A DNA stretch of 64,000 bases from Armatimonadota bacterium (GCA_038207085.1 JBBRAE010000005.1:20181-84180); one strand, 5' to 3'. Counted from the first letter of the stretch, positions 2,998-51,439 are shown. Program-made: numbers and translations. The notes: generated from the sequence alone by a model not told the origin.

Positions 2998-3771
2998 TTA
3001 AGAGCGGAACAGCGCCACATCCCTCTGCAAATAACCCCGCAGACGGAGCACCGCCTGAGTGTGTAGCTGATACACCCTCGATTCGGACACCTCAAGGATT
3101 TTTCCGATTTCCTTAAAGGTAAGTCCTTCATAATAGTACAACGTAAGTACCAGGTTTTCCCTGGGCGGCAGACGGTCTATAGCTTGTCCAAGCGACAGTT
3201 TCATCGCCTTGACCTCGACCTCCCCCAGGGTGTTCGAGTTTTCGTCGCGGATTACGTCGGCGAGCTGGATCTTTTCGTTGCCCTCGCTTGAAAGCACAAT
3301 GTCATCAAGCGAAAGCAGCGAGGCGCGCCCCGTATCTGCAAGCACGGAATGGAACGAGTCTATGTCCATCCCAAGCGTCTGCGCGACTTCTTCATCCTCC
3401 GCCGGCCTGCCAAGTCGGCTCTCAAGGGACATATAGGCCCTCTCAAGCGCCTTGACACGCTCGCGAACAGACCGGGGAACCCAGTCCTCTTCACGGAGCA
3501 TTTCAAGAATCGCTCCCCGGATAAGGGCGATGGCGTAGGTCTCAAACTTGACCTGCCTGGACATATCGAACTGGTCGATAGCCTTGATGAGCCCTATCAC
3601 GCCAGCGCCGATCAGGTCTTCCCTGTCGACGTTGGGCGGAAGGCTCGTCACCACCCTGCCCGCGGTTATCTTAACGAGGTAGGAGTACTGCGTAATGAGC
3701 GCATCCCTAGCCTTCTGGTCACCCCAGACCTTATACCTGGACCATGCTTCTGCGAGTTCGGTTGCTTGCAT
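2998..3771 (-). CDS. RNA polymerase sigma factor, sigma-70 group 3 (FliA/WhiG/SigB family)
   Basis: Regions 2/3/4 are recognisable: region 2.x at the N-terminus, region 3, and a C-terminal region 4 HTH (LTLYYYEGLTFKEIGKILEVSESRVYQLHTQAVLRLR). 257 aa. Confidence 0.8.
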   Translation of the reverse strand: MQATELAEAWSRYKVWGDQKARDALITQYSYLVKITAGRVVTSLPPNVDREDLIGAGVIGLIKAIDQFDMSRQVKFETYAIALIRGAILEMLREEDWVPRSVRERVKALERAYMSLESRLGRPAEDEEVAQTLGMDIDSFHSVLADTGRASLLSLDDIVLSSEGNEKIQLADVIRDENSNTLGEVEVKAMKLSLGQAIDRLPPRENLVLTLYYYEGLTFKEIGKILEVSESRVYQLHTQAVLRLRGYLQRDVALFRS

Positions 3772-14300: not shown

Positions 14301-14441
14301 ACGTTCGTCCGGGGAATCCGTCCCCCGATGCCGTTTCAGGGGAATCTTTCCCCCAGCTTAGTTATCGGGCATAGTCGATCATTGGGTTGGCGGACAGAAT
14401 CCGCGGAACAGGGTCGGGGGACGTATTCCCCCGACCAACAG
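14301..14441 (+). repeat. Family-B MITE-like repeat (about 140 bp), copy 1, with internal tandem duplication
   Basis: acgttcgtccggggaatccgtcccccg...ggttggcggacagaatccgcggaacagggtcgggggacgtattcccccgaccaacagg. The reverse-complement copy is at 39113-39226. Copy 1 has an extra gatgccgtttcaggggaatctttccccc. Confidence 0.7.
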
Positions 14442-14500
14442 GACTTCGATCAAGGTCAAAGCTCGCTTGCTTGGCCGCGCCGAAAATGATACCATCTGGT

Positions 14501-15064
14501 ATGATTACGCGATGCGGATGGGTCCCGGTGGGAAACGAGATATACGAGCATTATCACGACCGGGAGTGGGGCGTGCCGGTCTATGACGACCGACTGCTCT
14601 TTGAGTTTCTGGTCCTCGAAGGCGCGCAGGCGGGCCTCAGTTGGCTGACGATCCTAAAGAAACGCGACAACTACCGCCGCGCGTTTGATGGGTTCGACCC
14701 TGAGACAGTCGCCGCCTATGGGCCAGAGAAGGTCGAGGAGCTTATGGCCGACGCGGGGATCGTGCGCAACAGGCTGAAGATCGAGGCGGCGATCAAGAAC
14801 GCGCGGGGGGTTCTCGATCTCAGAGACGAGTTCGGCGGCTTCTCGGATGCGCTCTGGCGGTTTGTCGGCGGCAGCCCTAAGAAGAACTCATGGAAGAGCC
14901 TCGCCGAGCTTCCCGCAAAGACCCCGGAATCCGACACGATGAGCAAATTTCTACTCTCCCACGGCTTCAAGTTCGTCGGTTCGACCATCTGCTACGCGTT
15001 TATGCAAGCCGTCGGAATGGTGAACGACCACACAACCGACTGCTTCAGATACGACGAGGTGTGA
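14501..15064 (+). CDS. tag: DNA-3-methyladenine glycosylase I
   Basis: MITRCGWVPVGNEIYEHYHDREWGVPVYDDRLLFEFLVLEGAQAGLSW is the canonical Tag N-terminus. The ORF-track start (14387) would read through the family-B repeat, so the ATG at 14501 is chosen. Confidence 0.85.
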   Translation: MITRCGWVPVGNEIYEHYHDREWGVPVYDDRLLFEFLVLEGAQAGLSWLTILKKRDNYRRAFDGFDPETVAAYGPEKVEELMADAGIVRNRLKIEAAIKNARGVLDLRDEFGGFSDALWRFVGGSPKKNSWKSLAELPAKTPESDTMSKFLLSHGFKFVGSTICYAFMQAVGMVNDHTTDCFRYDEV

Positions 15065-25727: not shown

Positions 25728-28118
25728 TTGTTTTTTAAAGGACTAAGCATTCAAATGATAGATAGAGCCGATTCCGTTGATTTTCAACTAAAACTGTCCG
25801 AGCCGACCGTCGCCGAGTTCGCCGATGGGGGAAGCACCACGTTTGTCCCAGCCAAATTCGTGCCGGAGCGCGCTAACTTCGACACCGTGCGCCTTGAAGG
25901 CGCTTGGCAGGTCGCCTACTGGCCGTTTGCCGTTCCTGAAGCTGAGATTGTGGGCAAAGTCGGTGGAAACGTCTCGTGGAGCGAAGTCGCGCAGCCGGGC
26001 AAGGTGTTCTACTATGACCCGAATACGTCCCCTGACAAGATCCCGGACTGGGACAGGGTCTCGCTTGCGCACATCGACCCCGAAGATGGCGCGATTATCA
26101 AGCGAAACGTTACCGTACCGGGCAACTGGGCGGGCAAAAAAGCCTTTTTGAGGTTCGAGGGGATTTACCCCGCGGGTGTCGTCTATTTTGACGGTATAAA
26201 GGTCGGCGAACAGTGGAGCGGGCTTACCCCAATCGAGTTCGATGTGACCGAGCTTGCCACGCCGGGCGTCCACACGGTCGCGATCAGACTCTACCGCAAG
26301 CACGAGTCTGTAAAGCTCGACATGCCCCGCCACGCCCTTGAGTTCACGGGCCTCTGCCGCGCGGCGTTTCTGCACGCGGTCGAACCGGTGCATGTCTCAG
26401 AGATGAGGCTCGCGCCCGAGCTTGCCGATGACTACAAAACAGGGCACGTGACGGGTGAAGTCACCGTCAGAAACTCATCAGGCAAGAGCACCGAAGCGAC
26501 TGTAGCCGTGCAGATCGTCGACGCAAAGACCAATGTGATCGTCGAAGTGCCCTACAGCGTGTCGCTTGGAGCAGGCGAAGAGAAAACGATCGAGATCGAC
26601 GTCCCGGCGGGCGAAGTGAACACCTGGAACGCCGAGAAGCCCTACCTCTATGCCGTCCGCCTCCGAGTGATCGCGCCGGGCCAGGAGTCGCAGTGCCTGA
26701 AAGAGACGATCGGCTTTAGAAAGTTTGAGATGAAGGATCAGCGCCCGCTTCTTAACGGCAACCCCGTCAAGTTCCGTGGTGTCAACCACCTCACCTTCCA
26801 CCCCGAGGGCGGGATGTACACCCCCGAGCCGTGGCTTAGGCAGTGCCTGACGATGATGAAGCGCGCGAACGTAAACGCGATCCGCACGCACTTCTTCGGC
26901 CCGCGTGAGCTCACGGACCTCTGCGACGAGCTTGGAATCTACCTGTTGCAGGAGCTTCCTATTGACTGGGGCCACCCGTATTTCCATGAGTCGGTCCACC
27001 TCGGGCCCGTGCTTCACAGGATGGAAGCCTGCGTCCGCCGCGATAGAAACCACCCCTGTGTTATGGTGTGGAGCATCGGCAACGAGAACCTGCCGAAGAC
27101 CGAGGAGATCCACGACGTTTTCTTCCAGCACCTCGCACTTGCAAACGAGATCGTGAAGAAGCTGGACCCGACTCGCCCTACGATGTTCCCACCTCCCGGG
27201 CCAGCAAACAAGATCATGGGCATCTTCGAGACGCGCATCGGCGATATCGCGGACATCCATTACAGCTTCAAGCTGATCCGAGAGTTCAACGAGACCAACG
27301 TGCTCAGCAACCCGCGCACCTGGGAGCCGACTTTTGAGACGCACACCCGCGAGGAGCTTCACAAACGAGGCTGGAGCGGCGTCTGGTTCTCAAGTGAGTA
27401 TGGCATCGCCAACAAGCAGCCCGACCTTAACGGCGCGGCCTACCTGAACCTGATCGCCGACCTCGACTTTGACCCGCTCTCAGGCAAGAACGCCCAGCAG
27501 ACGTTTGTGGAGCGAATGCACTCCGAGTGGGGCCTGATGCACGACGACCCAACATGCCTTGGCGGCGCATATTTCTGCTGGATCGCGGCAGGCGCGGGCG
27601 ACCAGTGGGGATGGGTCCGCTGGGGAGAGGACGCTGACTGGGGAATCCTCACCGGCGACCTGATGCCCAAACCCTCGTTCTGGGCGCTGCGAGAGCTGTT
27701 CTGCCCCGTGCGCTTCCCCGACCATGTCGTCTGGCAGCCGGGAAGCAAGGAAGTGAAGATTTCGATCCGAAACGATTACAACGGGCTCGACTTCTCAGAT
27801 CTCACGTTCCGGCTGATGAGAACGGCCCCGGCATGGGGAAGCATGTGCCGCATCTTTGAGGACATCCCTGTCTCCTGCCCGCCCGGTGAGACAGTAACCG
27901 TGACGCTCCCGATGGAGAACACCGCTGGCCTCGACGAAGGTGCCACGTCGATCTGTCGGTTTATAGTCCTTGAGCCTAGCGGCTTCCGAACGATCATGGC
28001 CGACGTTTTGGTGATCTCTGAAGAAAACGTCGACAAGCGCAAGTCGGGAACGAACGGCCACAACGCCGCCCGCCCGAATATCCCAATGCCCCTTGGCCCG
28101 GACGCGGTGCTGGACTAG
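25728..28118 (+). CDS. Glycoside hydrolase family 2 (beta-galactosidase/beta-mannosidase-like)
   Basis: Sugar-binding domain, Ig-like domain and TIM barrel with RDRNHPCVMVWSIGNEN (GH2 acid/base region). The TTG at 25728 or the ATG at 25755 (MIDRADS) are both possible starts. Confidence 0.8.
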   Translation: MFFKGLSIQMIDRADSVDFQLKLSEPTVAEFADGGSTTFVPAKFVPERANFDTVRLEGAWQVAYWPFAVPEAEIVGKVGGNVSWSEVAQPGKVFYYDPNTSPDKIPDWDRVSLAHIDPEDGAIIKRNVTVPGNWAGKKAFLRFEGIYPAGVVYFDGIKVGEQWSGLTPIEFDVTELATPGVHTVAIRLYRKHESVKLDMPRHALEFTGLCRAAFLHAVEPVHVSEMRLAPELADDYKTGHVTGEVTVRNSSGKSTEATVAVQIVDAKTNVIVEVPYSVSLGAGEEKTIEIDVPAGEVNTWNAEKPYLYAVRLRVIAPGQESQCLKETIGFRKFEMKDQRPLLNGNPVKFRGVNHLTFHPEGGMYTPEPWLRQCLTMMKRANVNAIRTHFFGPRELTDLCDELGIYLLQELPIDWGHPYFHESVHLGPVLHRMEACVRRDRNHPCVMVWSIGNENLPKTEEIHDVFFQHLALANEIVKKLDPTRPTMFPPPGPANKIMGIFETRIGDIADIHYSFKLIREFNETNVLSNPRTWEPTFETHTREELHKRGWSGVWFSSEYGIANKQPDLNGAAYLNLIADLDFDPLSGKNAQQTFVERMHSEWGLMHDDPTCLGGAYFCWIAAGAGDQWGWVRWGEDADWGILTGDLMPKPSFWALRELFCPVRFPDHVVWQPGSKEVKISIRNDYNGLDFSDLTFRLMRTAPAWGSMCRIFEDIPVSCPPGETVTVTLPMENTAGLDEGATSICRFIVLEPSGFRTIMADVLVISEENVDKRKSGTNGHNAARPNIPMPLGPDAVLD

Positions 28119-28154
28119 CCCGCTTTGTTCGTGAAGCGAATAATGCTTTGCTGG
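28116..28154 (+). repeat. Family-D short repeat, copy 1 (directly after the GH2 stop)
   Basis: tagcccgctttgttcgtgaagcgaataatgctttgctgg matches tagcccgctttattagtgaagcgaataaagctttcgc at 41911. Confidence 0.55.
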
Positions 28155-28281
28155 TTTTCTATATATACAGCCGGGGCGGCGTGCCCCGGCTGTATTGACT
28201 TCAGCGCCGCATTAGGTTACATTGGAGTAGCTGCGTAATACAAGCCCTGCAGTAGAGAAAGCCAAGGAAGGTGACCTCGCA

Positions 28282-29766
28282 ATGCGACTAAAGCACATCG
28301 CCGTCTATGGACTCGTCCTCATCGCCATAGCCTCTGTAACGGCTGGAGCCTATGCGTTCCCCGCGCGTCGTTACTACATCAGCACAGTATACTCCTGGTG
28401 GCCGACTTACTCCGACATGTCGCTTTTCGACAAGTTCATCGAGGAAAGCAAACAGAAGGGGATGAACTCGATCAGCATCGACGTTCCCTGGTCCATCGAG
28501 AACGACCTAGGAGGCTTTGATTTTGCCGCGACCGACCAGAGAGTCGATTTCGCCGTGTCACGGGGGCTCTCGGTCTTCCTGAGGCTAAATTGCACCACAA
28601 TGGGCGGCAGGCCCAAGTGGCTCTCTGACGATATGCTCCAGGCGACGCCCGACGGCAAGGTGTTCAAGCGGGACACCGACGGCGCGATGATCCCATCGCT
28701 CAGTCACCCAAGTGTCCGCGCCCACATCGCAGGGTTCGCGCGTGCGGCTTCACTTCACTACGGCGCAAGATACCCATGGACGGTCTCCGGTGAGTATCCG
28801 GTGGTCGCGATCTCCCCCGCGCTCGACCTATACATGGAGAGCGAATACTACCCTGACGCTGATCTCGACTACAGCAAAGCCGCCGAGGCAAGCTTCGCCT
28901 CCTGGGTCAAGCGTCAGTATAAGTCGCTAGATGCGCTAAACGCCAGATGGGGCAAAAACTGCAAGTCATGGTCGCAGGCGACACTAAAGGACGCCCACCC
29001 GACCGCCAGATATATGTTTTTCGAGTCCGAGCTTTCCCGTGCCTGCCGCGAGTTTGCAGGGGCAGTGCACACGGCAAGCGCAATCAGGGTCGGAATCCAT
29101 TCCGGCTGCGCCTTTGACAGCCCCCGCAGGCGCACGATGAACGTTTCGGCGATGCTCTCCGGAGTCGACTGGCTCTTCATATCCGACGCGCCGACCGTGA
29201 ACCACGCGTTTGCCGTCGACTACGCCCGCACTTCGGCCCCGATGCTGAAAGTCGCAAGCGGCATAGACTCACCAAGCCACGCCGAAGGGACCAACGGCCG
29301 CTACTTCAACCAGGGTGTGCGGGCGTTCGAACACGGCGCATGCGCGGTCGTGCTTGCCAACTGGGACCTTTCCAACATGCGCGACAACGCCCGCTGGCCG
29401 TTCCTGCACTTTGTAGGCAAGCTCACCCGTTCCTACCCCACAGCCACAAGGCCCGAGAGCGCGATGTATGTCTCGACCTGGGACCTGATCACCCGTCCCA
29501 ATGCGATCGACGAGTATATCCCGACCTACCAGGCGCTTTCAGGGGAAGGCAAGCACGCGGTCGACGTCCTTTCCGACGCCGCCATCGTCTCCGACCCGGC
29601 AAGACTCGCACGCTACTCGGAGATCCATCTACCTGCCAATCGCACGATCCCGCCGGCGGTCCGACAGGCGCTTGTTAGAGTCCGAGATAAACTAAAAATA
29701 TCCAGGCCGCTCGTCGCAGGCACGATGGACGAATACGGGCAGCTGACGGATCGGTTCAAGCCGTAG
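28282..29766 (+). CDS. Secreted TIM-barrel glycoside hydrolase (GH42-like / beta-galactosidase-family N-domain)
   Basis: Signal peptide MRLKHIAVYGLVLIAIASVTAGAYA. ...YKSLDALNARWGKN..W.. resembles the GH42 LN.RWGT.FWS region. The family call is tentative. Confidence 0.55.
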   Translation: MRLKHIAVYGLVLIAIASVTAGAYAFPARRYYISTVYSWWPTYSDMSLFDKFIEESKQKGMNSISIDVPWSIENDLGGFDFAATDQRVDFAVSRGLSVFLRLNCTTMGGRPKWLSDDMLQATPDGKVFKRDTDGAMIPSLSHPSVRAHIAGFARAASLHYGARYPWTVSGEYPVVAISPALDLYMESEYYPDADLDYSKAAEASFASWVKRQYKSLDALNARWGKNCKSWSQATLKDAHPTARYMFFESELSRACREFAGAVHTASAIRVGIHSGCAFDSPRRRTMNVSAMLSGVDWLFISDAPTVNHAFAVDYARTSAPMLKVASGIDSPSHAEGTNGRYFNQGVRAFEHGACAVVLANWDLSNMRDNARWPFLHFVGKLTRSYPTATRPESAMYVSTWDLITRPNAIDEYIPTYQALSGEGKHAVDVLSDAAIVSDPARLARYSEIHLPANRTIPPAVRQALVRVRDKLKISRPLVAGTMDEYGQLTDRFKP

Positions 29767-32821: not shown

Positions 32822-34308
32822 TGGGAAACGGCTTCAGAAGTGAATACCCGGACATCCGAAGGTCGCTCTGGTGGCAGTACGCCACGGCGGCGTTTGTGCT
32901 GATCGCATTCTTCTTTCTGCTGACGCTTTCTGACAACAGGCCATCGGGCAAAGCCGAACGACCCGACACCAGCGCCGACATTATGAGCGGGGACTGGGCG
33001 GTCAAGGTGAACCTGTTCTACGGGGCGCTGCCTGCCAAAGCCTCGCGGGCCCAGAGCGCCCTTCCGATGGCGTTCACAAGCTACAAGAGAGCGGCGGACC
33101 TCGGAAGCCCTGCGGGAATCAGGCGCGCCGGAGTCATCGCACGCGAGCTCAACCGGCCCGATGCGACCGAAATATTCGCGAAACTGACCTCACCCCAGGC
33201 CAACCACGACCTCCCCAAGCAGGACATCTCGCGCCTGAAAAGCGAAGCCGCGATGTGGCACGATATCTACACAGGCAGCCTCACCCCGGAAGTGACCAGG
33301 CGCTACGCCGAGCAGATCAAGAAGACCAACCTCGGCCCTGCCAGAGCCTACGCACTGGGGCAACTCTACACGCGCGCGGGCGAAAAGACACAGGCCATGA
33401 TAGTGATCGAACGAGCGCGTGAACGGGCGGTGGCATCGGTCGTTCCGGGGTCGCTCTTGGTCCTTGGTGTGATTTTGGCCGGGATCGCGGGAATCGTCTT
33501 TATTGTGATCTTCTTTCGAAACAGACGGCGGGAGCTACCCGGCGAGCTGCCAGTCGGCATCGCGGATGAGCTTGAGGAGCCAGAAGTCGACCGCGGGATC
33601 ATGTCCCGGCCCTGGGTATTGTTTCAGGGGTTCATCGCCTATATGGGCCTGATGCTCGTCCTCTCGTTTCTTGCGGTGGGGACGATCGTGCCACGGCTTG
33701 AGGGGATGGAGTCCGATCAACGGCTGTTCTACGGAGTTATGCTGGAGTTCGCCCTGAGCGCGACCACCGGGCTCCTTGCGCTTGCTATCCTCGCAAGCCT
33801 TGTAAAGCGGGCTGGCGGAACGCTTGCGGAGATCGGCCTGACGACCCGGGATTTCGGACGAAACGTGCTCTGGGGCTGCGCGGGCTACTGCGCGCTGCTC
33901 CCCATCCTCGCACTCGCAGCGATGATATCCGGCGCACTTTTCAGGGGACTTCCGACCCGCGAGCACCCCATCGTCCCGATGCTCCTATCCGGCGACCTCG
34001 CCGTCTTCTCACTGCTATTTGTGACCGGGGCGGTCTTTGCCCCGATATTTGAAGAGATATTCTTCCGGGGCGTGCTCTATCGGGGGCTCCGGTGGGGACT
34101 ATCGACCACTGCGGCGGTTGCGCTCTCTGCTGCGGGGTTTGCGATCGTCCACCCTCAGCTTCCGGCCGGGTTCCTGCCGATTTTCGCGATCGGCGCGGTC
34201 TTCGCCCTGCTTGCCGAGGAGCGAAAATCGCTTGTCCCCTCGATGGTCGCCCACGCGCTCAATAACGGCGTGATATTCCTCACGATTTATTTTCTAGTAA
34301 TGTCCTAA
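32818..34308 (+). CDS. Membrane protein with C-terminal CPBP-family (CAAX-protease-like) intramembrane metalloprotease domain and N-terminal TPR-like soluble region
   Basis: FAPIFEEIFFRGVLYRGL (the EExxxR motif) and AHALNNG (the H motif) of CPBP. Multiple TM helices. 4-nt overlap with yggT. Confidence 0.7.
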   Translation: MMGNGFRSEYPDIRRSLWWQYATAAFVLIAFFFLLTLSDNRPSGKAERPDTSADIMSGDWAVKVNLFYGALPAKASRAQSALPMAFTSYKRAADLGSPAGIRRAGVIARELNRPDATEIFAKLTSPQANHDLPKQDISRLKSEAAMWHDIYTGSLTPEVTRRYAEQIKKTNLGPARAYALGQLYTRAGEKTQAMIVIERARERAVASVVPGSLLVLGVILAGIAGIVFIVIFFRNRRRELPGELPVGIADELEEPEVDRGIMSRPWVLFQGFIAYMGLMLVLSFLAVGTIVPRLEGMESDQRLFYGVMLEFALSATTGLLALAILASLVKRAGGTLAEIGLTTRDFGRNVLWGCAGYCALLPILALAAMISGALFRGLPTREHPIVPMLLSGDLAVFSLLFVTGAVFAPIFEEIFFRGVLYRGLRWGLSTTAAVALSAAGFAIVHPQLPAGFLPIFAIGAVFALLAEERKSLVPSMVAHALNNGVIFLTIYFLVMS

Positions 34309-34507
34309 AGCCCTAAAGAACCCGCGCGGTGTGCCGATAATCTTTACTGGCAGGGAGTTTTGTGCTGACGCGCGAAGCTTCTGTGTTGCTCTGAGGAAGT
34401 GCCGGAAACGGCATAGTCGAGCAGTGCCTTTTGCCAGAGACAATCCTCTTTTTCTCCTTCCTTATAAGTGTTGTGGACTAACGTCGGATGCGATAAGCTC
34501 CCGGCGA

Positions 34508-34542
34508 CCCGCGGGGTGACCTCACCCGGCGGGATTTTTTTG
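34508..34542 (+). terminator. Plus-strand intrinsic terminator 200 nt past the CPBP gene; may end a short non-coding transcript
   Basis: CGCGGGGTGAcc TCACCCGGCGgg ATTTTTTTg: a 10-bp stem (1 mismatch) followed by a T7 run. Confidence 0.5.
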
Positions 34543-34679
34543 TACGGGGTGATGAGTTGGGTTGGTCGTAAATTTACCCCTCACGCCGGCCATCTCCTCT
34601 TAGGCGACAGCATTCCCCGTAGGGGAATGCGATAGCTCTCAAGGGGAGAGGGGGTAGATAGTAGGGTGAGGGTGCTAAA

Positions 34680-35777
34680 TCAGGAGTTCATCGCGGCGCG
34701 GGCGATCTCTTTGCCACGGTCGATGAAGTAGTGCATCGTCTCGTGATCGATCGAGGGCGGCTCGGAGTGGTCGGTGTGCAGGATATAGCCTGTTCCAGCC
34801 TTGATCACCGCAGGGATCTTCTTCTCAAGCTCGGCGTCGATCTTGGAGCGGTCATTGCTCTCAAGGGTGCGCACGTCGAGACCGCCGTAAAAGGCGATCC
34901 GATCGCCGAAGCGTTCGACGAGCGTTGGCAGGTCCATTCCGGCCTTCACTTCCATGGCCTGCAGGCAGTCCATACCGGCCTCGATCAGCCCCGGCACCAA
35001 CGCCTCAACGTAGCCGCAGGAGTGAACGATCACAGGGCAGCCCATAGAGTGCGCGAAGTCGAAGAGCTTCTTGTGCCCCGGCTGCACGATCTCCTCGTAC
35101 ATCCCCGGCGACATAAACGGCTTGTTCTTGAATCCCATGTCCTCATAGAAGAACACACCGTCGGGCTTGCCCTCTTCGGCGAATAGCGTCTCAAGGTGCG
35201 CGATGGTGAAGTCGGCGAAGGTGTTGACCATGTCTTTGACCCAATCGGGGTCAAGCGCCATCCCCATAAGCATGTACTCGTGCCCGCAGACGGGGTGCAT
35301 CTGCTCAAACGGCGCCACTCCGCTCCAGCAGAAGAACCGCTCCCGCTCGGTGGCGAAAACCTTGGCGTCGCGGTAACCTTGGAAGCTTATCCTGTTGCGA
35401 TCGAGATCGACCAGCCGCGGCTTGATCAGCTCTTCCCAGCCAGAACGGTCTTTGACTGTGAAATCGACGTGCTCCGGGGTGGTCGCATGCTCCTTGTGGC
35501 GGCGGAGAATCGCGCCGTTGCCATCAAGCATCAGGACCGTGTCCTCGGTCTCTTCGAGGACTTTGGGCTCAACATTGTAGTCGGCGGTGCTGGTTAAAGG
35601 CCAGATAAGGCGCAGATCCTGCCCAAAATGCTCTGCGACGTCCTCACCTTCAGTGACGTGACCCTCACTTGTCCATCTTTTGATAGTTTCGCTCCAGGGG
35701 CTCACGGCCACCGGAATCTCATCGACGGGCTTGCGTGACAGAGTCGCGACTACCCGCTCATAGCTTGTCATTGACAT
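34680..35777 (-). CDS. Uroporphyrinogen-decarboxylase (URO-D)-family protein (MtaA/CmuA-like fold)
   Basis: 365 aa. Its length and TIM-barrel layout match the URO-D superfamily. Function unknown. Confidence 0.7.
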   Translation of the reverse strand: MSMTSYERVVATLSRKPVDEIPVAVSPWSETIKRWTSEGHVTEGEDVAEHFGQDLRLIWPLTSTADYNVEPKVLEETEDTVLMLDGNGAILRRHKEHATTPEHVDFTVKDRSGWEELIKPRLVDLDRNRISFQGYRDAKVFATERERFFCWSGVAPFEQMHPVCGHEYMLMGMALDPDWVKDMVNTFADFTIAHLETLFAEEGKPDGVFFYEDMGFKNKPFMSPGMYEEIVQPGHKKLFDFAHSMGCPVIVHSCGYVEALVPGLIEAGMDCLQAMEVKAGMDLPTLVERFGDRIAFYGGLDVRTLESNDRSKIDAELEKKIPAVIKAGTGYILHTDHSEPPSIDHETMHYFIDRGKEIARAAMNS

Positions 35778-35873
35778 CTGGTTCGTCCTCTCTTATGCTG
35801 CCTTACTCCAAAAATCGGGTAGCACCATAGTGGAGGCTACCCGATAAATGATACACCAACTAAAACGTTTCCG

Positions 35874-36395
35874 CTACTCCGAAACCCTATCTATTTTCCA
35901 GATTTTTCCCACTTTGACCAAACCGACCCGGTTGATGAGCGTCTGCCCGCCTTCGCCCTTGAATGTCACGGTCACAGCAGCCTCGTTTGACCCCGAAACG
36001 CTGGGTTTGGAGACATCAAAGCTCCCATTGTTCTCGTGAACGAAGCCGAAGTAGTTGTCGGCCTTTTCCGCGCTTGCGCTTCGGTCAAAGAGCGAGTCCT
36101 CAAACTGCTGCGTGGTGAACTTCTTCGCCTGCTCGACCCTGCGGTTCGTGCAGGCTTCGGCCCACTTGAGTGTCACCTGATCCGGCGGGATTACACGAAG
36201 CGACATCACGGTGACCAGGGCGACAATCAGCACAAGAAGCGCCCCTCCGGCGATCCCCACCGTCTTCCAGGGGATTTCGACCGGCGGCTTCACTTCCACC
36301 TTTGGCCCACCCGGCCACTTGTCGGTCTGCTCTCCGCAGTACAGGCACGCTTTTTGCTCAGGATGCAGGCTCTGCCCGCATTTCACGCACTTCAT
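35874..36395 (-). CDS. Zinc-ribbon membrane protein (N-terminal CxxC..CxxC, one TM helix, extracytoplasmic domain)
   Basis: MKCVKCGQSLHPEQKACLYCGEQ; TM helix TVGIAGGALLVLIVALVTVMSL. Confidence 0.55.
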   Translation of the reverse strand: MKCVKCGQSLHPEQKACLYCGEQTDKWPGGPKVEVKPPVEIPWKTVGIAGGALLVLIVALVTVMSLRVIPPDQVTLKWAEACTNRRVEQAKKFTTQQFEDSLFDRSASAEKADNYFGFVHENNGSFDVSKPSVSGSNEAAVTVTFKGEGGQTLINRVGLVKVGKIWKIDRVSE

Positions 36396-36443
36396 ATCTA
36401 AGCGATGAGCGACTGGCGCTCATTTCCTCCTGTGTTGGTTGTT

Positions 36444-37613
36444 CTAGCTAAGCTCTACGGGCCCTGCGCCGGCTTCGGCTGTGCAGACGTAGAGGTTCGG
36501 CTCCACGCCTGTTTTGGCCTTGTAGCGCTCGGGGACGAGCCTTAAAAAATCTTCGACTGCATCGTCTCGAACCAGCGACGCCGTCGCGCCGCCGAATCCT
36601 GCGCCGATCAAGCGGCTGCACATCGAGCCTTCGACCGAGCGAGATGCCTCAGCCATCGCGTCGAGTTCAAAACAGCTTGTCTCGTAGTCGTCGCGGGCGG
36701 AGTTGTGCGACTTGTCCATAAGCAGGGCGAAGGTCTCCATATCGCCCGCCTTTAGGGCATCGCGGCAGCCCACGGTCCACTCGTTTTCGTTTACGACGTG
36801 ACGCGCGCGCTTCAGGACGACCTCAGGCAGCCTGTCACCGTAATTGGCGAGGTCCTCGCTTGTCACGTCACGGAGCGCCGTAACCCCCGGAACCCACTCT
36901 GAGAGCAGCTTTACAGCCTCCTCGCACTGGGCGCGGCGGGTGTTATACTCGGAATCGACAAGGCCGCGTCGCTTCATCGTATCGCAGATGATAATCTTGT
37001 TGCTGCCGGTATCAAGCGGCACGAGCTCGTGCTCGAGCGTGCGGCAGTCGAGGAAGAGCGCCTGATCTTTGGCTCCGAGACGGGATATGAACTGATCCAT
37101 GATCCCCGTGTTCACCCCGACAAACTTGTTTTCGGCCTTCTGCCCCGTAAGCGCGAGGTCCGGTCCCGACATCTCAAAGCCAAGCATGGCCTGAAAAAGC
37201 GTGCCGATTGCCATCTCGATCGCAGCCGAGCTCGAAAGCCCGGAGCCGACCGGGACGTTGCCCTCAACGGCGATATCCGCACCGCGGAGCTCAACCCCAG
37301 CCTCACCTAGATATACGAGCATCCCCCTGAGATAGTTGCTCCAGGTGTTCACTTCGTCGAACTTGTTGTCGTCAAGTGAGAACTCGACCATAGAGCCGAA
37401 GTTGGTCGAGTAAGCGCGAACGACTCTATCGTCACGAAGACGCCCGGCTGCAAGCACTTCAAAGCTCACTGCCACGGGCAGGACAAAACCATCGTTGTAA
37501 TCCGTGTGGTGGCCCATCAGGTCGATGCGCCCGGGTCCTTTGGTTAGAACCTCTGAATCGGTATTGTAGAGCTCCCTGAACTTGCGTTTAAGGGCTGTGG
37601 CCCTTGCTATCAT
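36444..37613 (-). CDS. galK: Galactokinase
   Basis: GRIDLMGHHTDYNDGFVLP (galactokinase signature). GHMP ATP motif VPVGSGLSSSAA. The RBS GGAGG lies inside the last codons of the upstream radical-SAM gene. Confidence 0.85.
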   Translation of the reverse strand: MIARATALKRKFRELYNTDSEVLTKGPGRIDLMGHHTDYNDGFVLPVAVSFEVLAAGRLRDDRVVRAYSTNFGSMVEFSLDDNKFDEVNTWSNYLRGMLVYLGEAGVELRGADIAVEGNVPVGSGLSSSAAIEMAIGTLFQAMLGFEMSGPDLALTGQKAENKFVGVNTGIMDQFISRLGAKDQALFLDCRTLEHELVPLDTGSNKIIICDTMKRRGLVDSEYNTRRAQCEEAVKLLSEWVPGVTALRDVTSEDLANYGDRLPEVVLKRARHVVNENEWTVGCRDALKAGDMETFALLMDKSHNSARDDYETSCFELDAMAEASRSVEGSMCSRLIGAGFGGATASLVRDDAVEDFLRLVPERYKAKTGVEPNLYVCTAEAGAGPVELS

Positions 37614-37619
37614 GGTGTG

Positions 37620-39095
37620 TTAAGCCTCCGTGGTGGGAATATTCTTGCCAAGCCCGGAGTTACCCGCCAGGCTCTTGATATTGTCGATAAAGTCTTTGTT
37701 CGCCGCAATATAGCGCCTCGTTAGCACGTGGCCGTAGGCGCGGTAGAACCATCCGTAAACCTTCATTCTGGCGTAGTCTCCCGCTTTCCGCCATCTGCCT
37801 ACAAAGACGTTTGCGAAGAAATGCGCGAAATCGGGCCGAACGAGCATCTTCGCGCACTGATACAGGCTGTAGAACCGCTTGGTCGCGATCATCATCTCCC
37901 GCTGCATCTCCCAGGCGTTCATGCTCTTGGGATTGTACACCACATGCAGCCCGTCGTAAAGCGACCAGTCCCGAGTGAGAAGACGCTTCTCCCGCTCCAT
38001 CTGCTCAAACACCGGCGTCCCAGGCAAGGGAGTGAGCGACATAAGCTGAACGGTATCAATCTTGTGTTTCAACGCAAAGTTTACTGTCTGCCTGACGGTG
38101 CTCACCGTGTCGTTCTCAGAGCCCAGGACGAACATGCCGTGGATCATTATTCCATTCTCATGGAAGACCTTGATCGACTCGACGATCTCCTCGACATTCT
38201 GCCCCTTGTCATACTCTGCCAGCGTCGCCGGGTTCACAGACTCGAAGCCGACATAGACATAGTAGCAGTTGCTCCGCTTCATAAGCCTGAGCAGTTCCCG
38301 GTCCCGGGTGACGTCGGCGCGCACCTGTGCGCTCCAGCCCGGAGTGACCCCGGCCGAGAGCATCTTGTCCAAGAGCTCCTTGGTGTGAGCGCGGTTTGCC
38401 GTGAAGTTGTCGTCGTAAAAGAAGACACTTTCAGCCCGAAGCGCCTTAAGCTCCTCAATCACGTTCTCCGCACTTCTGAAGCGATACCCGCGCCCAAACA
38501 TCCTCGTGACCGAGCAGAAGTTGCAGCCAAACGGGCACCCCCGCGAGGTCGCCACTGGTGTGACCGACATCTTTTCCCGGCCCCGTATAAGCGAGAGATC
38601 AGGAAACGGCAGCGAATCGAGATCACAGATCAGCCCGCGCGCGGCGTTGTGGACGATCTCATCGCCTCGCCTGTAGCTGAGCCCTTTAATGCCTTCGGGC
38701 TCCGAACCCGACTCAAGCGCGTCGATCAGCTCCCGAAACGCCTCCTCACCCTCGCCCCGCACGCAGTAGTCGGCGTGAGAAAGCGCCTCATCAGCCATAA
38801 AACTCACATGGCTTCCGCCAAGGACGACGGGAACACCAAAAGCGCGGGCCCTATCAGCGATGCGATAGGCCTCGGGCGCGGTCGACGTGGTAGTCGAGAT
38901 CCCGACGAGGTCCGAGCGACGCAGCTCTTCATAATCGATCGGCGCAAAGTCCTGGCAGTAGACGCTAACGTCGCGTCCCCGCGCTTTCTCCATCGCTCCA
39001 AGGAGCGGCAGACCAAGTCTCGGGAGCGCAACGCGGCTGTACACGTGGTACCCCGGCGCTTTGGGCTCGATTAGAGTGATCTTTTGGATATTCAT
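37620..39095 (-). CDS. B12-binding-domain radical SAM protein (class-B rSAM with C-terminal DUF4070-like region)
   Basis: N-terminal cobalamin-binding Rossmann domain (...DLVGISTTTSTAPEAYRIADRARAFGVPVVLGGSHVS). CxxxCxxC motif TSRGCPFGCNFCSV. 491 aa. Confidence 0.85.
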   Translation of the reverse strand: MNIQKITLIEPKAPGYHVYSRVALPRLGLPLLGAMEKARGRDVSVYCQDFAPIDYEELRRSDLVGISTTTSTAPEAYRIADRARAFGVPVVLGGSHVSFMADEALSHADYCVRGEGEEAFRELIDALESGSEPEGIKGLSYRRGDEIVHNAARGLICDLDSLPFPDLSLIRGREKMSVTPVATSRGCPFGCNFCSVTRMFGRGYRFRSAENVIEELKALRAESVFFYDDNFTANRAHTKELLDKMLSAGVTPGWSAQVRADVTRDRELLRLMKRSNCYYVYVGFESVNPATLAEYDKGQNVEEIVESIKVFHENGIMIHGMFVLGSENDTVSTVRQTVNFALKHKIDTVQLMSLTPLPGTPVFEQMEREKRLLTRDWSLYDGLHVVYNPKSMNAWEMQREMMIATKRFYSLYQCAKMLVRPDFAHFFANVFVGRWRKAGDYARMKVYGWFYRAYGHVLTRRYIAANKDFIDNIKSLAGNSGLGKNIPTTEA

Positions 39096-39112
39096 AGGCT
39101 GTCAGCTAACTG

Positions 39113-39226
39113 CTCCGTTGGTCGGGGGAATCCGTCCCCCGACCCCGTTCCGCGGACTCTATCCGCCAACCCAGTAATCGACGATCGCCGATAAGTGAGC
39201 TGGGGACAGATTCCCCGGACGAACAT
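39113..39226 (-). repeat. Family-B MITE-like repeat, copy 2 (inverted relative to copy 1), located between galT and the radical-SAM gene
   Basis: The reverse complement matches 14301-14441 minus the internal duplication. Confidence 0.7.
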
Positions 39227-39240
39227 GCCTTGCTAACAGC

Positions 39241-40227
39241 TCACTTTTCCGTATTAGGCTCCGCTGCGCGAAGTTCCGCCGCTTTTTCCTCGGCCAGCGT
39301 ATCGTTGATATACGCGCCCGCGCCGGACTCGCTTCCAGCCAAGTACTTCAGCTTCTGCGGAGTCCTGTACGGCGGGTAAAACTCGATATGGAAATGATAA
39401 AAACCACTGTAGTCCATGCCGTCGGTCGGCGTCTGGTGCAGCACCATCATGTAAGGAAGCGACATATCCCAGAGGTTGTCATACTTGCTCAGCATGGTCT
39501 TCAGGATGCTCGCAAGATCGTCCTTTTCTTTCTCTGTAAACTCAGGGAGCGAGCCCTTGTGAGCCTGCGAGAAGATGTGCACCTCATAGGGGTAGCGCGC
39601 GTAAAAAGGAATCGCCGCAAAAAACGACTCGTTCTCAACTACAACGCGCCGACCGTCCCTTTTCTCTTCGGCGACGATGTCGCAGACCACGCAGCGGCCG
39701 GTCTCTTTGAAATGCGCCTCAGCCCCATCGAGCTCGCGCTTGATGTGCGGCGGGACGAACGGATAAGCATAGATCTGGCCGTGCGGATGGTCGATCGTTA
39801 CGCCAATCTCTTTTCCCTTGTTCTCGAAGATGAAAACATAGTCGACGTAATCTTTCTGCCCGAGCTCGACAAAGCGATCGGTCCAGACCTCGATCAGTTT
39901 GCGGATATCCTGCTCGCTCTCACCGGCAAGGGAGCCATCGTGCCTGGACGAGTAGAGCACTACCTCGCAGACGCCGTCGGCGGGCCTTACTTTGTAGAGG
40001 TCGCTGCCCTCGACCGACATCTCCGGCGCGGGGTGCTGAAGCGACGGGAACTTGTTCTCAAAGACGACGACCTCGTAGTCCTCGCTTGGAATCTCCGTCG
40101 GAAACGCCCCGGGTTTGGTCGGGCAGAGCGGACAGTAGTCTTTGGGAGGCAGGAAGGTGCGGTCCTGCCGATGCGTAGCCGTAATCACCCACTCGCGCAG
40201 CAGTGGATGCCATCTAAGTTCGGACAT
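39241..40227 (-). CDS. galT: Galactose-1-phosphate uridylyltransferase (HIT-family, UDP-glucose:hexose-1-P)
   Basis: MSELRWHPLLREWVI...CPLCP...; HPHGQIYAYPFVPP (the HxHxQ HIT motif). Confidence 0.85.
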   Translation of the reverse strand: MSELRWHPLLREWVITATHRQDRTFLPPKDYCPLCPTKPGAFPTEIPSEDYEVVVFENKFPSLQHPAPEMSVEGSDLYKVRPADGVCEVVLYSSRHDGSLAGESEQDIRKLIEVWTDRFVELGQKDYVDYVFIFENKGKEIGVTIDHPHGQIYAYPFVPPHIKRELDGAEAHFKETGRCVVCDIVAEEKRDGRRVVVENESFFAAIPFYARYPYEVHIFSQAHKGSLPEFTEKEKDDLASILKTMLSKYDNLWDMSLPYMMVLHQTPTDGMDYSGFYHFHIEFYPPYRTPQKLKYLAGSESGAGAYINDTLAEEKAAELRAAEPNTEK

Positions 40228-40329
40228 TTACTTCTTGTCTCCGTTCTTGCCGTCATCGCTCTTGCCAAACGTGAAATAGATGAGTGTTCTCCCCCCGGAG
40301 ATCTCAATAACTTCCTTTTTCATATCCAT
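40228..40329 (-). CDS. Unlisted 33-codon small ORF (MDMKKEVIEISGGRTLIYFTFGKSDDGKNGDKK) translationally coupled to galT (TAA-ATG junction)
   Basis: Manual reverse-complement translation. GGGAGGAAAT RBS 9-12 nt upstream of the ATG. The stop TAA abuts the galT ATG. A sigma70 promoter and leader hairpin lie upstream. Confidence 0.35.
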   Translation of the reverse strand: MDMKKEVIEISGGRTLIYFTFGKSDDGKNGDKK

Positions 40330-40432
40330 CTCTGGCTATTTCCTCCCGTGACTATAAGCACAGCCGACACCAAAAACGGCGGTCCGGTAGGTCCGCCGCA
40401 GAGTCTTCAAAACAAATGCCTGTGCCAATTGT

Positions 40433-40462
40433 ATTTTAGGCCCTTCATGCCTCATTCGTCAA
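40433..40462 (-). promoter_or_regulatory. Sigma70-type promoter for the sORF-galT-rSAM-galK operon, followed by a terminator-like leader hairpin (40377-40398)
   Basis: Minus strand reads TTGACG-(18 nt)-TAAAAT. The leader contains CGGCGGacctaccggaCCGCCG then UUUUU before the sORF RBS. Confidence 0.45.
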
Positions 40463-40920
40463 TACGAACGCCTGTAGATCCAGGGCTAACGCATCTTGAC
40501 CGGCAACCAACGTAGTGCCCGTCCCGCCGCCGCGGCCTCTCGCATCACTTTCGATGATGCTGTCGGTGAGACCATCGGCGCGGAACGTGCCGAGCAAACG
40601 ATAGAATTTCATAAAGTTTTCCATTTGGCACAGCACCTTTGATACTGATGGCCTATCGCATTCCCTATCGGGAACGCTGTCGGCGAGGCGGGCGCGGCGA
40701 CCCGCCACTACGGGCGTTCGGCGCTGCCCGACAGCTAAGATACGTTCGCCCTGGTCTGTGGATAACATAGCTCTGCTATAAGTGGGGGATGTTGGGTATA
40801 ATGAATGTAACTTAGTGATAGCCGGCACAGATCGCAACGCTCGTCGAGAAAGAGGCTATTGTGCCTGAGTCCTTGCGTCTGATATCATTGTAGTTGAGGG
40901 GATCAGTTAGGAGGAAATGC

Positions 40921-41913
40921 ATGAGCAACTCTATGAACCGTCGCGATTTTCTGAAGATCACGGGAGCAGTCAGCATCGGGGCGGCAGCCCTTTCCATAGG
41001 CGGCGCGTCCGCTCTGACCAAACCCGTCGAGAAGAGATCGACCAAACTACCGCAGAGAGTCCTCGGGCGCACCGGCGAGAGCGTGAGCATTATCGGGATA
41101 GGCGGCGTAGGGATGATCGTCGAGGCCGAAGAGGAAGACGTTGTGTCGATGCTGAACGAGGCAATCGACATCGGAATCACCTACTTGGACACCTCCCCTA
41201 TTTACGGCAAGGAGCGCTTGAGCGAGCACAGGCTCGGCCTTGTCCTGGCAAAGCGTCGGAGCGAAGTCTTTCTTGCAGGGAAGTGCGAAGCGCGCAACTA
41301 CGACGGCATCATGAAAGACGTCGAGGAAAGCCTGAAAGAGCTTCAGACCGACCACTTCGACCTCCTCCAGCTCCACTACTGGCCGAACCGCAACGCCTGG
41401 AACGTCGACCCCTGGAATGTGCTCGGCGGGCCCAAGGGCGTAATGGCCGCGTTTGCCAAGCTCAAAGAGCAGGGCGTCATCAAATACTGCGGGCTGACCG
41501 GACACCCAATCGATAAGTTCGCGATGCGCGACGACATGCGCCGGGCAATCTCACGCTACGACTTTGACACAGTGCTCTGCTTCGTCAACCCCAAGCAGGA
41601 GAGCCTGTGGGTTACCCGCGAGCTGATCCCCGTCGCGCGCCGCAAGAATATGGGCGTCATCGGAATGAAGATGTTCGGCGGCGGCACACCGGGCGCGCTT
41701 GTCGGCAAGAAACCCGGACAGACCAGCGCGAAAGAGCTCTTCCGCTACGCGCTCAGCCAGCCGATACACGTCTCTATCCCCGCTGTGACGAGCATCGATC
41801 AGTTGAGGACAAACGTCGAGTGGGTCAAGGCCTTCAAGCCGATGACCGCAGAGGAGTCCAAGACCCTGATCGCTCAGGTAAACGTCCCTGGCGGCGCCAA
41901 ACAGATGATTTAG
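40921..41913 (+). CDS. Aldo/keto reductase with twin-arginine (TAT) signal peptide
   Basis: MSNSMNRRDFLKITGAVSIGAAALSIGGASA (TAT signal: RRDFLK followed by AxA). AKR fold (..GIGGVG.., ..IDTSPIYG.., LHYWP). AGGAGG sits 8 nt upstream of the ATG at 40921. An extended -10 TGgGTATAAT lies at 40794-40802. Confidence 0.8.
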   Translation: MSNSMNRRDFLKITGAVSIGAAALSIGGASALTKPVEKRSTKLPQRVLGRTGESVSIIGIGGVGMIVEAEEEDVVSMLNEAIDIGITYLDTSPIYGKERLSEHRLGLVLAKRRSEVFLAGKCEARNYDGIMKDVEESLKELQTDHFDLLQLHYWPNRNAWNVDPWNVLGGPKGVMAAFAKLKEQGVIKYCGLTGHPIDKFAMRDDMRRAISRYDFDTVLCFVNPKQESLWVTRELIPVARRKNMGVIGMKMFGGGTPGALVGKKPGQTSAKELFRYALSQPIHVSIPAVTSIDQLRTNVEWVKAFKPMTAEESKTLIAQVNVPGGAKQMI

Positions 41914-41986
41914 CCCGCTTTATTAGTGAAGCGAATAAAGCTTTCGCTAACAGAGCATTATTCACGCTACTCGTGAATAATGCGGG
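41911..41986 (+). repeat. Family-D repeat, copy 2 (near-palindromic; directly after the AKR stop)
   Basis: tagcccgctttattagtgaagcgaataaagctttcgctaacagagcattattcacgctactcgtgaataatgcggg. Its right half is roughly the reverse complement of its left half. Confidence 0.55.
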
Positions 41987-42055
41987 TTAGAAGTCACAAA
42001 TGGTTAGTCGCCAGGTGTTGTGGTTGACACACAATGCCTGGCTGCTGGCTACTAG

Positions 42056-50614: not shown

Positions 50615-50642
50615 ACCATTTATTCGTTGCTCAGTTCACCGA

Positions 50643-51439
50643 CAAACTCACGTAGTGGCCGGTCGCCGTGCCGGCCATCAGCACCAAAGGCGCTGCGCCA
50701 ACTGTGTAATCTCATATACATGATCATTTGTACGACGCGTCTCGCGTCGATGGCCAGCCAGCGACCGGCCACTACATCAACTGCACCTATAACGGCAGAA
50801 TATCGGGCATACCGGAGTACGGCCACAAATCCGCAGTCTCCGCCAATCCTCCCCTTATCGGATTCTCCAGAATGTACTGGCAAATTGCAATTGTATCCTC
50901 ATCCCTACGCGCTATGTGATCGTACCAACTCCGCTGCCACAACTGACCTTCACCTTCGTGCTTTCGATAGATCATAGTCGTAAAGCTCTTGAATTGGCCA
51001 ATGACACTACCTACAGACGCTTGTTCCTCTGTGGGCGACAGCGCCAGATGCAAGTGATCAGGCATCAGACAATACGCATACAGCCGAATGATCCCCTTGT
51101 CACGCCTCCACAACAGAGCATCAACAACATCGCGAGCCAGCAAGGGATCTTCAAAAACCCGCTGTTTGTCGGTCGTGCACATGGTTGCAAAATAGACCAT
51201 GTTAGGGTCAGAATAGCTAACATCCTCAAGTCGCATCCGTTTGCGAAGATAGCATCGCTCTCGAGTTTCGCTCATACACAATCCCCAACAAACGCCATAT
51301 CGCCACAAACTCACGTAGTGGCCGGTCGCCGTGCCGGCCATCAGCGCCAAAGGCGCTGCGCCAACTGTGTAATCTCATATACGTGATCATTTGTACGACG
51401 CGTCCCGCGTCGATGGCCGGCCAGCGACCGGCCACTACA
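50643..51439 (-). mobile_element. REP-associated tyrosine transposase (RAYT) gene flanked by two near-identical REPIN copies (50643-50775 and 51306-51439)
   Basis: The two 130-bp flanks differ at about 4 positions. Each flank is an inverted doublet: GTAGTGGCCGGTCGCCGTGCCGGCCATC ... GATGGCC(A/G)GCCAGCGACCGGCCACTAC. Confidence 0.75.
50787..51275 (-). CDS. REP-associated tyrosine transposase (IS200/IS605-like HuH Y1 transposase, RAYT class)
   Basis: Start at MSETRERCYLRKR (ATG 51273-51275). HuH motif LYAYCLMPDHLHLAL. Downstream ..QRSWYDHI.. tyrosine region. Track ORFs over the flanks (50430..50723, 50620..50883, 51226..51489) are repeat read-throughs. Confidence 0.75.
   Translation of the reverse strand: MSETRERCYLRKRMRLEDVSYSDPNMVYFATMCTTDKQRVFEDPLLARDVVDALLWRRDKGIIRLYAYCLMPDHLHLALSPTEEQASVGSVIGQFKSFTTMIYRKHEGEGQLWQRSWYDHIARRDEDTIAICQYILENPIRGGLAETADLWPYSGMPDILPL

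Follow-up and report, generated by a model that had tools for sequence, protein, structure and literature searches.

The 64,000-nucleotide (nt) stretch of DNA analyzed here (hereafter, the window), which covers positions 20181 to 84180 of contig JBBRAE010000005.1 from an Armatimonadota bacterium (assembly GCA_038207085.1), carries a galactose (gal) gene cluster of the Leloir pathway in which a gene for a B12-binding-domain radical S-adenosylmethionine (SAM) protein, referred to below as rSAM, is located between galT and galK. This arrangement is real, conserved among Armatimonadota, and, as far as the searches show, undescribed; a literature search on radical SAM proteins, galactokinase, and Armatimonadetes found nothing relevant. 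The galT gene is preceded by a short open reading frame (sORF) that appears to encode a detached N-terminal piece of the galactose-1-phosphate uridylyltransferase GalT.

Gene neighborhoods of rSAM were compared using a metagenome scan and tblastn searches in which the window proteins were run against every fetched locus (individual loci are given below by their L numbers and proteins by their P numbers). Among the homologs that are 50 to 71% identical to the window rSAM, the order galT-rSAM-galK recurs; in the related loci, galT is found directly 5′ of rSAM in 21 cases and galK directly 3′ in 19. A further gene, coding for the 173-amino-acid (aa) protein p173, comes after galK, or straight after rSAM, in 14 Armatimonadota loci. 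Once near-identical contigs are collapsed, the gal-linked loci represent ∼16 distinct Armatimonadota lineages with rSAM identities of 45 to 71%, the most divergent set including metagenome-assembled genomes (MAGs) of Chthonomonadales (45 to 47%). The initial annotation of this locus had allowed for a chance insertion peculiar to this genome, which is refuted by this distribution. The rSAM and galK genes are separated by 6 nt in the window; elsewhere, these junctions are mostly 4-nt overlaps or gaps of 5 to 40 nt, with 285 nt in L001. In a neighbor-joining tree, every gal-linked rSAM falls into one clade of 35 of the 162 sequences. The most economical account is that a widespread enzyme entered the gal operon just once, in an Armatimonadota ancestor, and was then inherited vertically, with the flanking gal genes being lost now and then.

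Several Armatimonadota loci depart from the common order. In one relative, rSAM-galK-p173 is found behind surE, and in the P0095 locus, rSAM has no gal genes around it and lies between GH127 and GH63-like genes. The rSAM-p173 pair is retained without adjacent galT and galK in L096, L100, L101, and L112; in L100 and L101, the order is a beta-propeller-like membrane protein, NTP_transferase, rSAM, and p173. An NTP_transferase-type gene (PF00483, 250 aa) is located 5′ of sORF-galT or of rSAM in 8 loci (L094, L097, L098, L100 to L102, L104, and L105).

A scan of GTDB with one genome per species yielded 587 relatives of rSAM, among them members of Bacillota, Thermodesulfobacteriota, Aminicenantes, Nitrospirota, Thermoleophilia, Zixibacteria, Anaerolineae, and Spirochaetota. 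More than 15 phyla are represented in the best 80, which share 42 to 52% identity with the window rSAM. In ∼135 non-Armatimonadota loci, including those from metagenomes, neither galT nor galK was found within 5 to 6 kb of the rSAM homolog, the near-exception being L068 with a weak galK-like match (22% identity) ∼2.7 kb downstream. The neighbors seen in other phyla include an SLT/LysM transglycosylase followed by MoeA and MtnA (17 loci), UvrA (12 loci), and TrkA. In 13 loci (among them L011, L022, L047, L054, L056, L059, L061, L075, L077, L081, L085, and L087), a 240-aa protein with a double MerR-type helix-turn-helix is encoded immediately 5′ of the rSAM homolog on the same strand; it is possibly a dedicated regulator of the rSAM family. 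Taken together, these recurrent neighbors suggest no pathway. The initial annotation had drawn from the synteny an uncharacterized modification of a sugar or sugar nucleotide. A link of this kind is possible, but the inference is weakened because the homologs in other phyla, which are as similar to the window rSAM as the most divergent gal-linked ones, have housekeeping neighbors.

The rSAM protein has the layout of class-B radical SAM enzymes, with a B12-binding Rossmann domain at the N terminus and, after it, a triosephosphate isomerase (TIM) barrel that carries the CxxxCxxC motif. Matches to PF02310 (57.8 bits; cutoff, 32.1) and PF04055 (80.1 bits) bear out the B12-binding and Radical_SAM domains proposed earlier, whereas DUF4070, named along with them, is not present in the Pfam output; the cysteines of the C187-x3-C191-x2-C194 motif are invariant in an alignment of 96 homologs. 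No curated family was reached: all 25 listed NCBIfam matches are below their cutoffs, with BchE (186 bits; cutoff, 481), HpnJ (153 bits), and HpnR (137 bits) at the top and then a lipid enzyme of the ladderane type, PhpK, ApyD, and MgmA; none of these scores comes near its cutoff, and BzaD is another named family that rSAM does not reach. The protein shares its domain order and the CxxxCxxC motif with the BchE/HpnJ/HpnR group but scores far below the cutoffs of these families (481 to 650 bits); in addition, its hosts are not known phototrophs, and the annotated neighbors include neither chlorophyll nor hopanoid genes. A homolog search returned 4,010 sequences, the nearest of them from Armatimonadota MAGs. 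The rSAM protein belongs to a distinct, uncharacterized, and unnamed BchE/HpnJ-like family with thousands of members in more than 15 phyla. A lead to the membrane-spanning-lipid synthases (PMC13159169) was dropped, as rSAM scores only 15 bits on the related Tes model.

An AlphaFold2 model of rSAM built from the 96-sequence alignment (predicted local distance difference test [pLDDT] score of 90, predicted template modeling score of 0.89) comprises a Rossmann domain, a partial TIM barrel, and, at the C terminus, a helical domain, with residues 5 to 130 forming the beta-alpha Rossmann fold at a pLDDT above 95. In a Foldseek search against PDB, the first match was AprD4, followed by MgmA/QCMT, CysS, TsrM, and OxsB, with similar scores and 15 to 20% identity; PDB sequence searches agree with Foldseek on the nearest solved proteins. 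These comparisons confirm the class but point to no particular substrate. The closest solved structures are AprD4, the paromamine 1,2-diol dehydratase (PDB 6FD2; template modeling scores [TM-scores] of 0.72/0.77, E = 2e-13), and MgmA/QCMT (PDB 9CCB; TM-scores of 0.62/0.72, E = 2e-16), the glutamine C-methyltransferase of methyl-coenzyme M reductase (PMC12931638, PMC11796369), both of which contain a Rossmann-type domain and a partial TIM barrel. However, identity to these two enzymes is only 17 to 20%, and their substrates, an aminoglycoside and a protein glutamine, have no counterpart in the gal locus.

The sORF upstream of galT was initially described as an unlisted 33-codon frame. It is real and conserved but not unlisted, since it has already been called as a protein (P0230) in public data. 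The motif [KR]K..I...(D/G)GR.LIYY.F precedes galT in the window as well as in 18 related loci; no other occurrence was found in any frame of the 168 loci. In the window, the TAA stop directly abuts the ATG of galT; the junctions seen among the loci are TAAATG, TAATG, TGATG, TAGTG, and GTGA, and the frame of the sORF relative to galT varies. Because of this variation and the abutting or overlapping stop and start codons, the sORF can be regarded as a separately translated, translationally coupled gene and not as read-through. Its dN/dS values are ∼0.05 to 0.3 (for L090 versus L001, dN is 0.07 and dS is 1.4), with a median of 0.3 over 33 pairs, which for such a short region is a noisy estimate; the N-terminal part is conserved and the C-terminal tail is variable. 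At the codon level, it behaves as a real gene under purifying selection, and the conservation in relatives that was sought for it is indeed seen. A profile search recovered 210 small proteins of 32 to 101 aa, some of them annotated as hypothetical proteins in Chthonomonas calidirosea.

The sORF goes with galT, not with rSAM. In the five loci compared for sORF context (L169, L170, L171, L172, and the window), galT is directly downstream in all five, and an adjacent B12-rSAM is absent in four. Thus, C. calidirosea has sORF-galT with no B12-rSAM nearby, and a contig binned as Stenomitos has the same pair with no B12-rSAM next to galT. The gene order is galE-sORF-galT-galK, with no B12-rSAM next to galT, in a Bacillota MAG and transporter-x-sORF-galT-galK, with no galE in the operon and no rSAM, in an Eremiobacterota MAG. 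More than 130 rSAM loci, for their part, have no sORF. The suggestion that the peptide serves as a substrate of rSAM does not survive this distribution.

The origin of the small protein is suggested by GalT itself. In an exhaustive search with the window GalT, many representatives were seen to carry an N-terminal extension of 40 to 55 aa (for example, one starting MRKTVARLADGRQLIYYDD), and a hidden Markov model (HMM) of the sORF, searched against 150 sequences, matches the N termini of such long GalTs (P0286, 7e-7; P0287, 1e-6; P0266, 3e-5). The concatenated sORF and GalT of the window align collinearly with 15 long forms, and Gly13 and Arg14 of the sORF are invariant across the 16 sequences. 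The sORF thereby corresponds to the segment K-K-x-I-x-x-x-DGRxLIYYxF that long forms carry fused to the core; it has the K/R-rich start and the DGRxL(I/V)YY motif, N-terminal to the RxxPL..W core. In these long forms (∼350 to 400 aa, with an N-terminal ‘..LADGRxLIYYDD’), the segment is part of the chain, whereas here it is a separate protein of 29 to 75 aa with its own start codon, a short lysine-rich linker, and a stop codon that overlaps or abuts the galT start. None of the solved GalT structures found by sequence search contains a segment of this kind, and a literature search on split or small-ORF GalT found nothing relevant. The simplest reading is that the sORF would be a detached N-terminal module of GalT, unrelated to rSAM and not a leader peptide; the proposal of a leader peptide is contradicted by the conservation of the peptide sequence itself and by its match to the long-form N termini.

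All elements that the initial annotation had placed on the minus strand of the window were located at their positions (Table 1), in the order promoter-like site, hairpin with U5, sORF, galT, 145-nt repeat, rSAM, and galK; the operon then runs past the originally described region to p173 and a terminator-like hairpin.

Table 1. Features of the gal gene cluster in the window, listed in the 5′-to-3′ direction of the minus strand
Feature	Position	Strand	Basis or description
Promoter-like site TTGACG-18-TAAAAT	40433..40462	-	10/12 sigma70 consensus positions
Leader hairpin, 7+2 bp with A/A mismatch, then U5	~40372..40399	-	GCGGCGG-A-CC/GG-A-CCGCCGU
sORF, 33 aa, product MDMKKEVIEISGGRTLIYFTFGKSDDGKNGDKK	40228..40329	-	Homolog of the N-terminal DGRxLIYY segment of long-form GalT
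galT, galactose-1-phosphate uridylyltransferase core, 328 aa	39241..40227	-	TIGR00209, PF01087, PF02744
Structured intergenic repeat, 145 nt	39096..39240	-	Second copy at 14302-14439
rSAM, B12-binding-domain radical SAM protein, 491 aa	37620..39095	-	PF02310 + PF04055
galK, galactokinase, 389 aa	36444..37613	-	NF003705
p173, 173-aa zinc-ribbon membrane protein, last gene of the unit	35874..36395	-	Sub-threshold Pfam matches
Terminator-like hairpin 3′ of p173	35809..35845	-	10-bp stem ATCGGGTAGC/GCTACCCGAT, 12-nt loop, T5

The window galT and galK encode orthodox Leloir enzymes. GalT scores 205 bits on its TIGR00209 model (cutoff, 102), matches both GalT domains, and contains ‘DHPHGQIYAYPF’ in its translation, with the HPHGQ active-site motif (the His-Pro-His nucleophile of the HIT superfamily) present. 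GalK scores 412 bits on NF003705 (cutoff, 385) and also matches PF10509, PF00288, and PF08544. The ribosome-binding site of galK, GGAGG, lies within the final rSAM codons, 6 nt being left between the rSAM TAA and the galK ATG, so the tight junction reported earlier is confirmed. The p173 protein combines an N-terminal zinc ribbon, one transmembrane helix, and a weak DUF4878-like C-terminal domain, its Pfam matches being below threshold. The hairpin behind p173 is absent from the output of the terminator scan, in which the pattern was limited to loops of 3 to 8 nt (that of the p173 hairpin has 12). A URO-D/MtaA-like gene of the methylcobamide:coenzyme M methyltransferase family (34680-35777, minus strand; below cutoffs) is located directly 3′ of this hairpin; no such gene was found beside rSAM in any related locus.

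Genes for GH2 and GH42-like beta-galactosidases at 25728-29766 on the plus strand, ∼7 to 10 kb from the gal genes, indicate a genuine galactoside-utilization neighborhood; in L002, a GH2 gene is likewise found 3′ of the gal cluster. Similarly to the Leloir operons galETK of Escherichia coli and galE-galT-galK of Firmicutes, the window unit has closely spaced galT and galK on the same strand, a HIT-family GalT with HPHGQ, a GHMP-kinase GalK with the galactose-binding signature, and beta-galactosidase genes nearby. It differs from them in having no galE or galM, in the placement of rSAM between galT and galK, in the apparent splitting of GalT into a small N-terminal protein and a core, and in the zinc-ribbon membrane protein that closes the unit. 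A tblastn search with the GalE of L170 gave no match within the 64-kb window.

The region upstream of the sORF was also analyzed. The promoter-like pattern occurs at 4 sites in the scanned 5.3-kb region versus 1.8 expected in shuffles, a weak signal; the site of Table 1 falls inside the 564-nt noncoding divergent region (40330-40893) that separates the aldo-keto reductase gene from the sORF and can be taken as a plausible consensus hit. A 130-aa ORF at 40445-40837, which overlaps this site and was considered as an upstream gene that the leader hairpin could terminate, was rejected, its GC content at third codon positions being 0.58 versus 0.72 to 0.79 in real genes, with no Pfam match. The leader folds with a z of −0.40, and 70 of 200 shuffles fold equally well; the hairpin was missed by the terminator scan, and the upstream region is not alignable even in the closest relatives. 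No riboswitch or known RNA was found in Rfam at E ≤ 1 over positions 34000-42000. The attenuator that had been proposed here therefore finds no support: the hairpin lies upstream of the sORF, it is not conserved, and it is the peptide that is conserved rather than the structure. The 564-nt region as a whole folds with a z of −4.7 on the minus strand and −1.6 on the plus strand and has no Rfam match.

Part of the structure in this divergent region is a solo copy (40572-40726) of a repeat of ∼100 to 130 nt with the core ..CAAAYGAT...TTGGCRCAGCRCCTTTG..CTGATGGCC..GGCRCGGCGACCSGCCACTACG.., other copies of which (50620-50730 and 51290-51430) lie on either side of an IS200-like Y1 transposase gene (50787-51350, PF01797). 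The Y1 transposase with its flanking repeat suggests a system in this genome that resembles repetitive extragenic palindromes (REPs) and their associated tyrosine transposases. The 145-nt element between galT and rSAM shares no similarity with that repeat. Its predicted RNA fold has an energy of −86.3 kcal/mol (z = −8.3), and there is no T-run after it, so it does not qualify as an intrinsic terminator. The second copy (14302-14439), 88% identical over 89 nt and with an extra 29-nt GGGGAATCCGTCCCC-type hairpin, sits between a DUF1015 gene (12928-14208, minus strand) and a methyladenine glycosylase gene (14387-15064, plus strand). As a noncoding, strongly self-complementary sequence of ∼115 to 145 nt with two intergenic copies in the window, the element resembles repeats of the REP type and miniature inverted-repeat transposable elements (MITEs); the earlier label of a family-B MITE is reasonable but unproven. 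Sharing of the 145-nt repeat by relatives was ruled out, as no fetched locus gave a match. The galT-rSAM spacers of the relatives are 35 to 119 nt long and have unrelated sequences, with visible palindromes in three of the spacer types. Palindromic spacers of 109 to 119 nt are found at this junction in L089/L090 (∼752-862 and 3247-3357), L091 (4892-5000), and L097 (4882-5000). The presence of palindromic but unrelated spacers at the same junction implies that a stem-loop there may be selected independently of its sequence.

The explanation favored for this locus, which, taken as a whole, we hold with slightly better than even confidence, combines one gal transcription unit, a split GalT, and a captured rSAM that keeps the general function of its family. 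The sORF, galT, the structured repeat, rSAM, galK, and p173 would be transcribed together, and the stop-start overlap would couple translation of the sORF to that of the GalT core, with the small protein probably working as a GalT subunit. The rSAM gene would have been captured once into the gal operon, in an ancestor of these Armatimonadota, and would be co-expressed with galactose catabolism; its product could perform SAM-initiated radical chemistry, possibly cobalamin-assisted, such as C-methylation or rearrangement. The substrate is judged more likely to be that of the whole family, which could be of a lipid or glycolipid type, than a Leloir intermediate. The repeat may be a REP/MITE-like passenger, with a possible buffering effect on mRNA stability where galT meets rSAM. 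For rSAM itself, two readings are live, a lineage-specific functional link to UDP-hexose metabolism and a co-regulated passenger; the latter is favored because equally similar homologs elsewhere lack a sugar context and because the rSAM-p173 pair persists in some Armatimonadota with no galT or galK beside it.

Several observations weigh against this explanation. Co-transcription is deduced from gene spacing only, and the 145-nt structured repeat could separate the expression of the genes on its two sides. The link to sugar nucleotides may be functional after all, given that the embedded position has been kept across class-level divergence and that NTP_transferase is found upstream in 8 loci. 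In the AlphaFold2 model of concatenated sORF and GalT, the segment forms a beta-hairpin with a pLDDT of ∼50, and its docking on GalT lacks confidence. The apparent natural fusion P0286 (320 aa) starts with MKDDGRHLIYYSF, continues through a low-complexity linker of ∼45 aa into VSELRWNPVL.., and shares 69% identity with the window GalT across residues 2 to 155, but its C-terminal third is unlike GalT, so this fusion may be an artifact of assembly or gene calling and counts as weak evidence. Finally, the B12-like domain of AprD4 reportedly does not bind cobalamin, and cobalamin binding by rSAM is predicted only.

The main alternative, possible but distinctly less probable, is that rSAM is a true member of the pathway that performs radical chemistry (C-methylation, deoxygenation or dehydration, epimerization, or ring rearrangement) on a substrate derived from galactose, for example UDP-galactose (UDP-Gal), UDP-glucose (UDP-Glc), galactose-1-phosphate (Gal-1-P), or galactolipids or glycans that are built from these, with p173 as a membrane partner, so that the Leloir pathway would have a side branch in Armatimonadota. 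Its embedding between galT and galK in ∼16 lineages, down to 45 to 50% identity and with tight or overlapping galK junctions, is consistent with such a role, as are the sugar-1-phosphate nucleotidyltransferase-like (PF00483) genes of the 8 loci, which stay by rSAM even without galT and galK (L100, L101, and L105), the GH127 and GH63-like genes on either side of the P0095 rSAM, and the lack of galE in the operon and of a GalE homolog in the window. Among solved folds, the nearest, AprD4, acts on an aminoglycoside sugar, and the second-best NCBIfam match, HpnJ, is a hopanoid-biosynthesis rSAM that acts on the glucosamine moiety. However, the fold resembles AprD4 no more closely than it does MgmA, CysS, and TsrM, which methylate proteins or antibiotics, and the ∼135 loci from other phyla, with rSAMs 42 to 56% identical to that of the window, show no sugar genes. 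Within Armatimonadota, rSAM-p173 has outlived the loss of adjacent galT and galK in L096, L100, L101, and L112, and the four rSAM-less loci have sORF-galT, two of them also galK, with no rSAM in between.

The idea that rSAM replaces the missing galE as a radical UDP-Gal/UDP-Glc 4-epimerase draws on the same absence and on the Bacillota counterpart, galE-sORF-galT-galK, but appears quite improbable: the 64 kb inspected are only part of the genome, GalE is usually encoded elsewhere, the rSAM family is widespread without gal genes, and the Eremiobacterota operon likewise has no galE and yet no rSAM. We also know of no precedent for a class-B radical SAM enzyme epimerizing a nucleotide sugar. These two carbohydrate-linked readings jointly retain a substantial minority of the overall probability. 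Least probable of all, to the point of being nearly dismissed, is a role of the sORF as the leader peptide of an attenuator or as a precursor resembling those of ribosomally synthesized and posttranslationally modified peptides, to be modified by rSAM. A hairpin with U5 and a short ORF do precede galT, rSAM is 1 kb downstream, and the sORF has a conserved N-terminal part and a variable tail. Against this, the hairpin precedes the sORF, neither following nor overlapping it, is not conserved, and folds no better than shuffles; the peptide is under purifying selection and matches GalT N termini, and sORF and rSAM each occur without the other (in four and in more than 130 loci, respectively).

Class-B radical SAM enzymes catalyze some of the hardest C-H functionalizations known, and for most of their families no substrate has been assigned. 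At its fullest, the locus would reveal radical chemistry not described before, acting on a galactolipid or a nucleotide sugar derived from galactose, as a cobalamin/radical-SAM side branch of the Leloir pathway specific to anaerobic Armatimonadota, together with a two-subunit GalT in several phyla whose small subunit of 30 to 75 aa had gone unnoticed, a combination that we consider rather unlikely. Overall, it is a moderately interesting lead for enzyme discovery. GalT appears to come in two forms, one long chain or a core with a small subunit, in at least 4 phylum-level groups, and the sORF would add a conserved small protein to a textbook enzyme. The rSAM family, in turn, gains a stable genomic anchor in one phylum, in a pathway with cheap, well-defined metabolites, and this anchor yields a tractable list of candidate substrates (UDP-Gal, UDP-Glc, Gal-1-P, and galactolipids) that would be useful even if the answer is negative.

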